IMG/VR virus record: IMGVR_UViG_3300034069_001731
Span: 2,811 to 66,810 of that record
Origin: a virus
Reading direction: 5' to 3' (one strand)
DNA length: 64,000 nt
The notes beneath the pieces were generated by a model. That model made no database searches, had not been told where the DNA came from, and was given only the letters and a program-made list of their open reading frames with translations. Positions 10,076-60,792 of this stretch are shown piece after piece. Numbering within the stretch: position 1 is the first letter of the stretch; each line of letters starts with the position of its first letter. The translations under genes were made by a program, and so were the position numbers.

Positions 10076-10440
10076 GGTGGTGAGGAGCCGAAGCTCCCCT
10101 TGTTGTGATACGCGCCCACCGCGCGCCCGGTGCCTCAAGCTGCGAGCAGCTGGCGGTCCGAGGAGAAGTTGTCGTTGACACTTCAGGGTTTAGCTTATTT
10201 CGCGGCCAACCGAGATAACTCGCCTCGACTTCCTGCTCTCGTCAATCCTATTTCGCCCCCATCAGAAGCACACGAGGCCGAATTAACCCCCTCTTGTTGA
10301 AGCCAGTGGCGGGCAACCCTGCCTGGCCCTCATGTGCTCGTGGTGGAGGCGCCGGGGTGCTGCCCCCCGGGTCCGATAAGCATTCCTTCTCGGGTCAACG
10401 TCGTCTGACCCCGATGTAGCAGCCCGCATCGGGGAGCACA
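10076..10440 (-). ncRNA. ssrA: Two-piece (circularly permuted) tmRNA; outer ends approximate
   Basis: Acceptor piece ends GGACCCGGGGGGCAGCACCCCGGCGCCTCCACCA at 10341; 80-nt self-pairing spacer; coding piece starts GGGGGCGAAATAGG at 10260 (G3-U70 pair); tag frame GTC AAC GAC AAC TTC...CTC GCA GCT TGA at 10179-10135. Confidence 0.92.
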
Positions 10441-59889: not shown

Positions 59890-59965
59890 GAACGCCCCCG
59901 GGGAGCGATGATCATAGCGCGCCGCAGCCTGACGGCAACGACCTAATTTAGCTCATCCACAGAAA

Positions 59966-60125
59966 TGGCTCGGCTGGGGATGTCCACCCCTTCCCTGCTG
60001 GGCCGTCCAGCGCCTGGCTGCGCGAGGAGGACACGGCGTATCCGCCTGGTGTGTCCAACAGTGCCAGCACGAGGGAATATGCCTCCCGGATACGGGATCC
60101 TGCAGTGATCGTTCTCGTGGCCCAA
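59966..60125 (-). ncRNA. Candidate novel structured RNA immediately downstream of tRNA-Asn
   Basis: Helices TTGGGC/GCCCAG, CACGAG/CTCGTG, TCCCG-TATC-CGGGA, GGACAC..GGCG-GATA-CGCC-GTGTCC and GGGG-TGGACAT-CCCC; ends GAGCCA. Confidence 0.5.
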
Positions 60126-60127
60126 TG

Positions 60128-60203
60128 TGGCTGCCCGACCAGGAATCGAACCTGGAACCACCTCGTTAACAGCGAGGCGCTCTACCTGTTGAGCTATCAG
60201 ACA
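60128..60203 (-). tRNA. tRNA-Asn (GUU)
   Basis: Cloverleaf; loop CT-GTT-AA; G73, CCA. Confidence 0.92.
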
Positions 60204-60263
60204 CCGAAGCGGACCGTGTGGGAGACAATCATCTCCAACCACACCATTCCGCAGCGTAGAGGG

Positions 60264-60292
60264 TTTATACCAGCTGTGTTCATTTTTGTCAA
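60264..60292 (-). promoter_or_regulatory. Near-consensus sigma70 promoter for the tRNA-Asn unit
   Basis: TTGACA (60292-60287), 17 nt spacer, TATAAA (60269-60264). Confidence 0.85.
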
Positions 60293-60324: not shown

Positions 60325-60792
60325 TCAGCCCCGGGCTGCGGCAATTTGTGCCCGGAGTCGCGCTTCCTGGATCCTGGCCTCACCCCAGCCTTCGACCACG
60401 GCCGCCATCTCGTGCTGATCGAAGGTCGATACGTTGGTGGCCCGTATCGCGACCTTGAAGACGTCGTCCATGGCGACCACCGGGACGTCGTACCATCCGT
60501 GCCCGATGAGCTTGTTGGCCTTGGTCAGGAGTCGGATGCATTCCCCTTCGAGCTGGAAGGCGAGCAACGACGGCGCCCACAGGATCCGCTGGATCTTCAG
60601 CGTCTCCGGGTTGCCGTGCTGCAGCTCCATGACGCGACGGCGCGGGTCCGGGGTGACGCCGAGCTTCACCGGCCACTGCTTCGGGGCCGACAGCGCATAG
60701 ACCGCACTGTAGCCGTCGACCTCATGGAGGCCATGATCGTCACCGGCGAACCAGGTGATGTCCGACGACCTCCGCTTCAGTCCCTTCGCCAT
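60325..60792 (-). CDS. GIY-YIG-like nuclease (T5orf172/MUG113 type)
   Basis: AVYAL......VKLGVT.DP.RR..ELQHGNPE.L; E......L and GWY. Confidence 0.75.
   Translation of the reverse strand: MAKGLKRRSSDITWFAGDDHGLHEVDGYSAVYALSAPKQWPVKLGVTPDPRRRVMELQHGNPETLKIQRILWAPSLLAFQLEGECIRLLTKANKLIGHGWYDVPVVAMDDVFKVAIRATNVSTFDQHEMAAVVEGWGEARIQEARLRAQIAAARG

Follow-up and report, generated by a model that had tools for sequence, protein, structure and literature searches.

The prohead RNA (pRNA) of phage phi29 carries two complementary loops and is similar in size to the RNA described here. Purine and lysine riboswitches contain junctions braced by kissing loops, and ribozymes typically have a compact conserved core with invariant unpaired purines and a brace whose sequence is free. 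Other structured phage RNAs are found among or beside tRNA genes. RNA C and RNA D of phage T4 (rnaC and rnaD, also termed species 1 and 2 RNAs) are encoded in the tRNA cluster and have no assigned function (PMC3014915; PMC9697503). ROOL and GOLLD are phage or prophage non-coding RNAs (ncRNAs) located near tRNA arrays, with covarying kissing loops, and ROOL was non-essential where tested (PMC12286853; PMC5737381); the covarying loops proved to pair between molecules (PMC12286853). Theta ribozymes, which are HDV-like, are pseudoknotted RNAs encoded just 3' of phage tRNAs (PMC10879173). For the Caulobacter phages Rogue and Colossus, tRNAs were the only RNA elements reported in the genome paper (PMC3556154).

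Locus and setting of the element

The window, i.e. the whole stretch of 64,000 nucleotides that was analysed, comes from a 72-kb virus record that is about 60% complete. The phage is a myovirus, with a tail sheath, both terminase subunits (TerS and TerL) and six tRNAs encoded in the window. We infer an alphaproteobacterial host, since the nearest match of the capsid protein is in Bradyrhizobium phage BDU-MI-1 (51%). The phage also encodes a permuted (two-piece) tmRNA of the alphaproteobacterial type (10134-10409, minus strand).

The element lies on the minus strand, as do the neighbouring features described here. On its 5' side we confirmed a tRNA-Asn(GTT) with encoded CCA (60128-60203), which ends 8 nt ahead of helix P1, and, upstream of it, the near-consensus sigma70 promoter that an earlier sequence-only reading of this DNA had claimed (60264-60292; -35 box at 60287-60292, 17-nt spacer, -10 box at 60264-60269). 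This site, TTGACA-17-TATAAA, has 11 of the 12 consensus bases, and was read directly from the sequence, its last base (A) having caused the promoter scanner to skip it. To judge by its sequence, the promoter probably drives both the tRNA-Asn and the RNA. The leader between promoter and tRNA-Asn (60204-60260) contains a stable hairpin (-25.9 kcal/mol), and a 155-residue open reading frame upstream of the promoter (60325-60792) has no Pfam match and a 33% homolog in G005, a related phage genome described below.

The RNA core is predicted to span 149 nt (59971-60119), its ends being set by comparison with homologs of 148–190 nt. All members can be parsed into three abutting domains. Domain I (60068-60119 in the window; 50–66 nt across members) is a long hairpin with internal loops, closed by the 6-bp helix P1 and ending in the tip loop L1 (60087-60094). 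Domain II (60014-60067; 45–75 nt across members) is a long hairpin closed by the 5-bp helix P3, with a purine-rich bulge near its base and the tip loop L2 (60037-60044). Domain III (59971-60013) is an H-type pseudoknot. It is followed by a 3' flank (59961-59970) that consists of an unconserved GCCA and an AU-rich tract, the latter present in most lineages, and that we regard as a candidate processing site. In the eight bases starting two after helix Pa, A and U make up 72%, compared with 39% for the loci as a whole, a background that includes coding DNA and so inflates the contrast; the flank may form a sharp 3' border like those behind array tRNAs.

Members of the family and their genomic context

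Comparison of sequences makes it nearly certain that we are dealing with a real family of phage RNAs that share this three-domain fold, as the sequence-only reading had anticipated in proposing a new phage ncRNA. The family appears to be an accessory, single-copy and so far uncatalogued ncRNA gene of about 150 bases. It has at least 14 members, and probably more, in about 10 lineages. The 14 sequences analysed are the window copy, those of the Caulobacter phages Rogue, BL10, Colossus and PW, those of four Brevundimonas jumbo phages, and five from uncultured contigs (L175, L174, L212, L311 and L365). The first homolog was retrieved by blastn with the 3' 40 nt (E=8), in an unannotated gap after tRNA-Gly in Rogue, which holds two elements, a skipping-rope RNA and the family homolog. 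Further blastn searches led from Rogue to Colossus and PW, and from Colossus to seven Brevundimonas jumbo phages (84% of the element, E down to 2e-21). The five contigs were found by pattern scans; most uncultured members came from patterns built on the core, whose invariance is partly selected in this way. A model of the 3' core (R1) gives its training members 58–82 bits and also matches L311 (41.8 bits) and L365 (30 bits), which lie outside the training set and show new compensatory pair types; noise in GC-rich DNA reaches about 27 bits, and L365 was accepted by fold and context, not by score.

Strict core patterns, with which only near-consensus copies are detectable, found no true member in 185,579 prokaryote genomes and one new member in metagenomes. 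No member was found in terminase-related loci, where the two closest records are only 30–34% complete. Plasmid matches were rejected as noise, and an exact search with the 3' hairpin returned chance matches only. Where tested, there is one copy per genome. None was found in phiCbK, BL57, BDU-MI-1 or T4, and it is the absence from the first three that leads us to call the family accessory. L311 comes from G005, a complete 109-kb genome that is related to the window's phage, with conserved synteny and a terminase match of 63%, and that has the RNA but no tRNA genes. We found no carrier-specific protein: apart from the terminase, an SLT transglycosylase-like protein is all that the window, G002 and G005 have in common. 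Wherever a host is on record for a member, it belongs to the Caulobacteraceae. The sequence-only reading had recognised no tRNA, SRP, 6S or RNase P motif, and neither motif nor model searches matched any of these; the Rfam search that it had suggested returned nothing over the element at E<=10, and no Rfam 15 family reaches its gathering score there. No description of the family was found in the literature, although 10,006 viral candidate RNAs (PMC10690425) lay outside this comparison and an earlier bulk listing is possible.

The gene lies within a phage tRNA cluster in 8 of about 10 lineages. In the two exceptions, L311 and L212, it is placed between small open reading frames, in L212 with no room for a promoter. 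A tRNA ends 7–8 nt ahead of the RNA in the window, in the Brevundimonas phages (tRNA-Gly where checked) and in L174, and in L175 the RNA ends 7 nt before tRNA-Pro, so that four lineages show a spacing in the style of array members. It lies behind the skipping-rope RNA in Rogue and within the tRNA array in Colossus and L365. Its neighbours (tRNA, promoter or unrelated open reading frames) differ in every lineage.

Several further elements were observed at these loci. The skipping-rope RNA of Rogue (RF02924, 45.8 bits), unannotated, occupies L002:2251-2347 (+), between tRNA-Gly and the new RNA, and another copy was seen at L122:1010-1115. Brevundimonas jumbo phages have an element of about 210 nt with skipping-rope blocks, a long insert and a terminator (L121:1500-1715 (+) and L123:1500-1720 (+)), which Rfam at E<=1 left unmatched in L121. 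A GOLLD-like match (L365:631-1046 (+), 80.9 bits, E 6e-20, under the 150-bit cut-off) adjoins the tRNA array of that member, and the gap that separates the family member from the next gene holds a GC-rich stretch with several hairpins (L365:5271-5400 (-), -47.4 kcal/mol), possibly another ncRNA. Directly 5' of the family member in the phage without tRNAs, L311:1348-1405 (+) has a small three-way-junction fold with no Rfam match. A structured, unannotated stretch of about 100 nt between a promoter and tRNA-Glu (L002:2591-2690 (+), L120:1556-1655 (+)) is common to Rogue and phiCbK, where it is partly annotated as a terminator, and is similar in BL57. In Colossus, the annotated start of gp095 (L118:1510-1812 (+)) overlaps the 3' domain of the RNA, and translation more likely begins at a later ATG, whose ribosome-binding site lies 16 nt beyond the RNA.

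The pseudoknot and the kissing arms

The most conserved part of the RNA is the 3' pseudoknot, which the first reading had overlooked. In domain III we identified, in order, the 5-bp helix S1 (60007-60011 with 59997-60001), a loop of 1–3 nt, helix Pa (4–5 bp; 60002-60005 with 59971-59974), a purine-rich linker (59991-59996), the variable hairpin Pb (59976-59990, with a 7-nt loop in the window copy) and an invariant unpaired A (59975), in what appears from the alignment to be a near-fixed sequence. Pa shows compensatory changes in four of its five pairs. In Pa and Pb taken together, all 117 cells are paired (100%) and five of nine pairs change on both sides, a number reached in 0 of 500 shuffles, although the alignment had been fitted to the model, which biases these counts in its favour; with slid controls the pairing collapses. 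S1 is nearly invariant, with a single one-sided change, and is less firmly shown, the search patterns themselves selecting for its sequence. The sequence-only reading had seen instead a closing helix around both arms. This helix reaches 6 bp in the window copy alone; of 13 homologs, 12 have 2 bp or fewer and the remaining one has 4 bp. Its bases belong to Pa and S1, and by comparison with the homologs they form the pseudoknot helix instead.

Both hairpin arms described by that reading are present, with P1 and P3 varying in sequence among lineages while their pairing is kept, and in all members the two helices follow each other directly, with no spacer. As claimed, the tip loops are complementary; the 4-base match alone is weak (85 of 1000 shuffles), and the 8-nt complementarity between 60087-60094 and 60037-60044 is reached in 0 of 1000 shuffles. 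The homologs bear out the kissing loops. Across lineages the kiss measures 4–8 bp and the loop letters differ while complementarity is kept (GUAUCC/GGAUAC in the window, UGGCC/GGCCA in Rogue, CUUCAG/CUGAAG in L175 and UUGCUG/CAGCAA in L212). In a test on seven loop sets, which leaves out the Colossus and Brevundimonas members, where the automatic picker took a side hairpin, and for which four domain boundaries were set by hand, cognate loops scored 39.5 against a permutation mean of 23.9, and among 5040 permutations only the true assignment reached that score. The switching fold that it had also considered is not conserved, the 8-bp helix being the window copy's version of the kiss.

The lengths of the two arms covary over eight lineages (Spearman 0.80, p 0.018; Pearson 0.63, p 0.10, with L311 as the one outlier), on lengths that were entered manually after deduction of a 14-nt side hairpin. 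In 7 of the 14 sequences the four bases ahead of P1 can also pair with the start of domain III in a 4-bp closing helix, P0; it is held tentative because the Colossus and Brevundimonas groups have only 1–2 bp there. Inspection by eye gave no consistent picture of another pseudoknot linking the bulges of the arms. The overall folding energy of the element is unremarkable (z -0.96), and for this reason support for the fold rests on the homologs. Among these, many indels fall across the element and no frame is evidently conserved, in agreement with the view that the open reading frames called here are shadows.

Possible functions and comparison with known systems

We hypothesize that the RNA is processed to a monomer that acts in trans and whose pseudoknot binds a host factor as a decoy or sponge, a full statement to which we give a probability of roughly 0.4. 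Its broader part, a processed trans-acting RNA, is likely, and trans action is favoured because the neighbours differ in every lineage. The RNA would share a transcript with the tRNAs or small genes beside it and be freed by host nucleases in the manner of array tRNAs, namely by RNase P at a following tRNA and by RNase E-type cuts in the AU-rich flanks. The product may fold compactly as a monomer, its two arms held side by side by the kiss, an arrangement that is favoured by the covarying arm lengths and proposed with less confidence than the release. The pseudoknot would be the working surface, given that the kiss is free in sequence and the pseudoknot nearly fixed. Least certain of all, this core might bind, in trans, a conserved alphaproteobacterial host factor, by analogy most plausibly as a decoy or sponge with a part in translation or in defence against phages. 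A host factor is favoured since no partner encoded by the phages is apparent and the known hosts are without exception Alphaproteobacteria; both the recorded hosts, all Caulobacteraceae, and the alpha-type tmRNA of the window point to this group.

The main rival to the braced monomer is an RNA-only multimer, in which L1 would pair with L2 of the next molecule to give rings, cages or filaments, comparable to small ROOL, GOLLD, manA or phi29 pRNA assemblies; the sequence-only reading had imagined multimers of the pRNA-like kind. P1 and P3 abut without a spacer, and if they stacked coaxially the two loops would face away from each other; the covarying kisses of ROOL and GOLLD, in the same tRNA-array context, are intermolecular (PMC12286853), and cages are possible for RNAs of less than 200 nt (10.64898/2026.07.01.735769). 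Matched arm lengths, however, are unneeded for head-to-tail pairing and lean towards intramolecular contacts, self-complementary loops occur in the Caulobacteraceae group only, the phage has a normal terminase that leaves a pRNA role unneeded, and the fixed core would stay unexplained, so that assembly into multimers seems unlikely, although the geometry can be read either way. A new self-cleaving or processing ribozyme, with a catalytic pseudoknot and the kiss as its brace, which would cut the polycistron or trim tRNA trailers, is distinctly unlikely. The conserved core and brace do resemble typical ribozyme anatomy, and the RNA begins 7–8 nt past the tRNA CCA in three lineages. Phage precedent exists in the theta ribozymes (PMC10879173), but these cut within 5 nt of the tRNA end, and here P1 is 7–8 nt away at best and often much further; tRNA spacing varies, G005 has the RNA without any tRNA, an HDV-like nested double pseudoknot (P3/L3, P1.1) was found in 0 of 14 members with a loose descriptor that had no positive-control validation, and a hammerhead-like motif pair in one of 14. 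Somewhat more adventurous is an activity new to phage RNAs. The invariant pseudoknot could be the core of a new class of ribozyme, or a short natural RNA could assemble head to tail into rings or filaments that display many copies of a host-binding pseudoknot against anti-phage defence; we consider it possible, if doubtful.

Other readings place the function in cis, in tRNA mimicry or in no RNA at all. A ligand-sensing aptamer or nuclease-blocking structure for a downstream message would fit the ribosome-binding site found 10–16 nt downstream in four of nine lineages (Colossus, L174, L212 and L311), the position of the L212 copy and the likeness of kiss-braced arms to the purine and lysine riboswitches. 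Yet the downstream genes are unrelated, a promoter, a tRNA or a long gap follows in Rogue, Marchewka, L175 and L365, no terminator lies immediately 3' of the RNA in the window, and the fold leaves the ribosome-binding site uncovered. Cis action appears quite improbable. The riboswitch arrangement, a regular place 5' of genes related in function together with an expression platform, was not found, since the downstream neighbours differ; SAM-I, SAH, FMN and cobalamin riboswitches, glmS, twister-sister and group I introns failed on both topology and Rfam. The sequence-only reading had also noted a T-arm-sized hairpin and a CCA-like end, and had considered a tRNA-like decoy. The hairpin with its 7-nt loop and the terminal GCCA are there in the window; a tRNA mimic that deceives nucleases or synthetases, with Pa as acceptor stem bearing NCCA, the linker as D-loop and Pb as anticodon or T arm, could also draw on CCA in the same register in L311, on the D-loop-like linker and on an A at position 6 in most 7-nt Pb loops. 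We nevertheless judge it very unlikely: CCA in that register is confined to these two of about 10 lineages and missing in the other eight or so, whose tRNA genes encode CCA, the T-loop motif was found in 0 of 14 members, Pb varies between 13 and 34 nt and has a 6-nt loop in the Brevundimonas phages, and there is no tRNA or YrlA match over the element. The 34-nt Pb of L365 also led us to drop Pb as an anticodon arm. That the element is a chance GC-rich spacer, as folding z-scores near zero and the E=8 of the first Rogue link might suggest, is hardly credible when the three-domain fold and its compensatory changes recur in about 10 lineages, mostly in unannotated gaps.

The family is unusually amenable to experiment. 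Two cultured carriers, Rogue and Colossus, infect the model host Caulobacter CB15, their relatives phiCbK and BL57 without the RNA are natural controls, and seven natural loop pairs offer ready-made swap controls. The fold is common to a myovirus lineage and to the phiCbK-like jumbo siphoviruses, which are unrelated to it, a distribution suggestive of exchange and selection among phages whose hosts are related.

Compared with the described systems, the phi29 pRNA differs in its setting, since the phage of the window, a myovirus, encodes both TerS and TerL, and the RNA described here is accessory and matches no Rfam model. The M23 RNA motif (RF03006) has a hairpin and purine run that resemble S1 and the linker, but is only 53 nt long and lacks the kissing arms; one member reached 24.3 bits against a cut-off of 41.2 bits, and no match was found in the window or seven other loci tested. 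Like the theta ribozymes, the family comprises pseudoknotted phage RNAs that can lie just 3' of tRNAs, but it is larger, with variable tRNA spacing and a different host group. The skipping-rope RNA, directly 5' of the family RNA in the Rogue array, is a separate element with a different fold, apparently kept in BL57, where the new RNA is absent; none was detected in the window's genome record, though controls were also silent there. ROOL and GOLLD measure 550–800 nt with many junctions, against 148–190 nt and three domains here, with no match to their Rfam models. T4 RNA C and RNA D are, like the family, genes of stable-RNA size inside a phage tRNA cluster; they show no sequence or model match to it (at most 4.7 bits, and none genome-wide in T4), and rnaC ends in a true T-arm, which the family lacks. 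On these comparisons, the family resembles T4 RNA C and D, ROOL, GOLLD and the skipping-rope RNA as a non-tRNA resident of phage tRNA arrays, yet is a member of none of them, and it adds a new fold to the RNAs of this kind.
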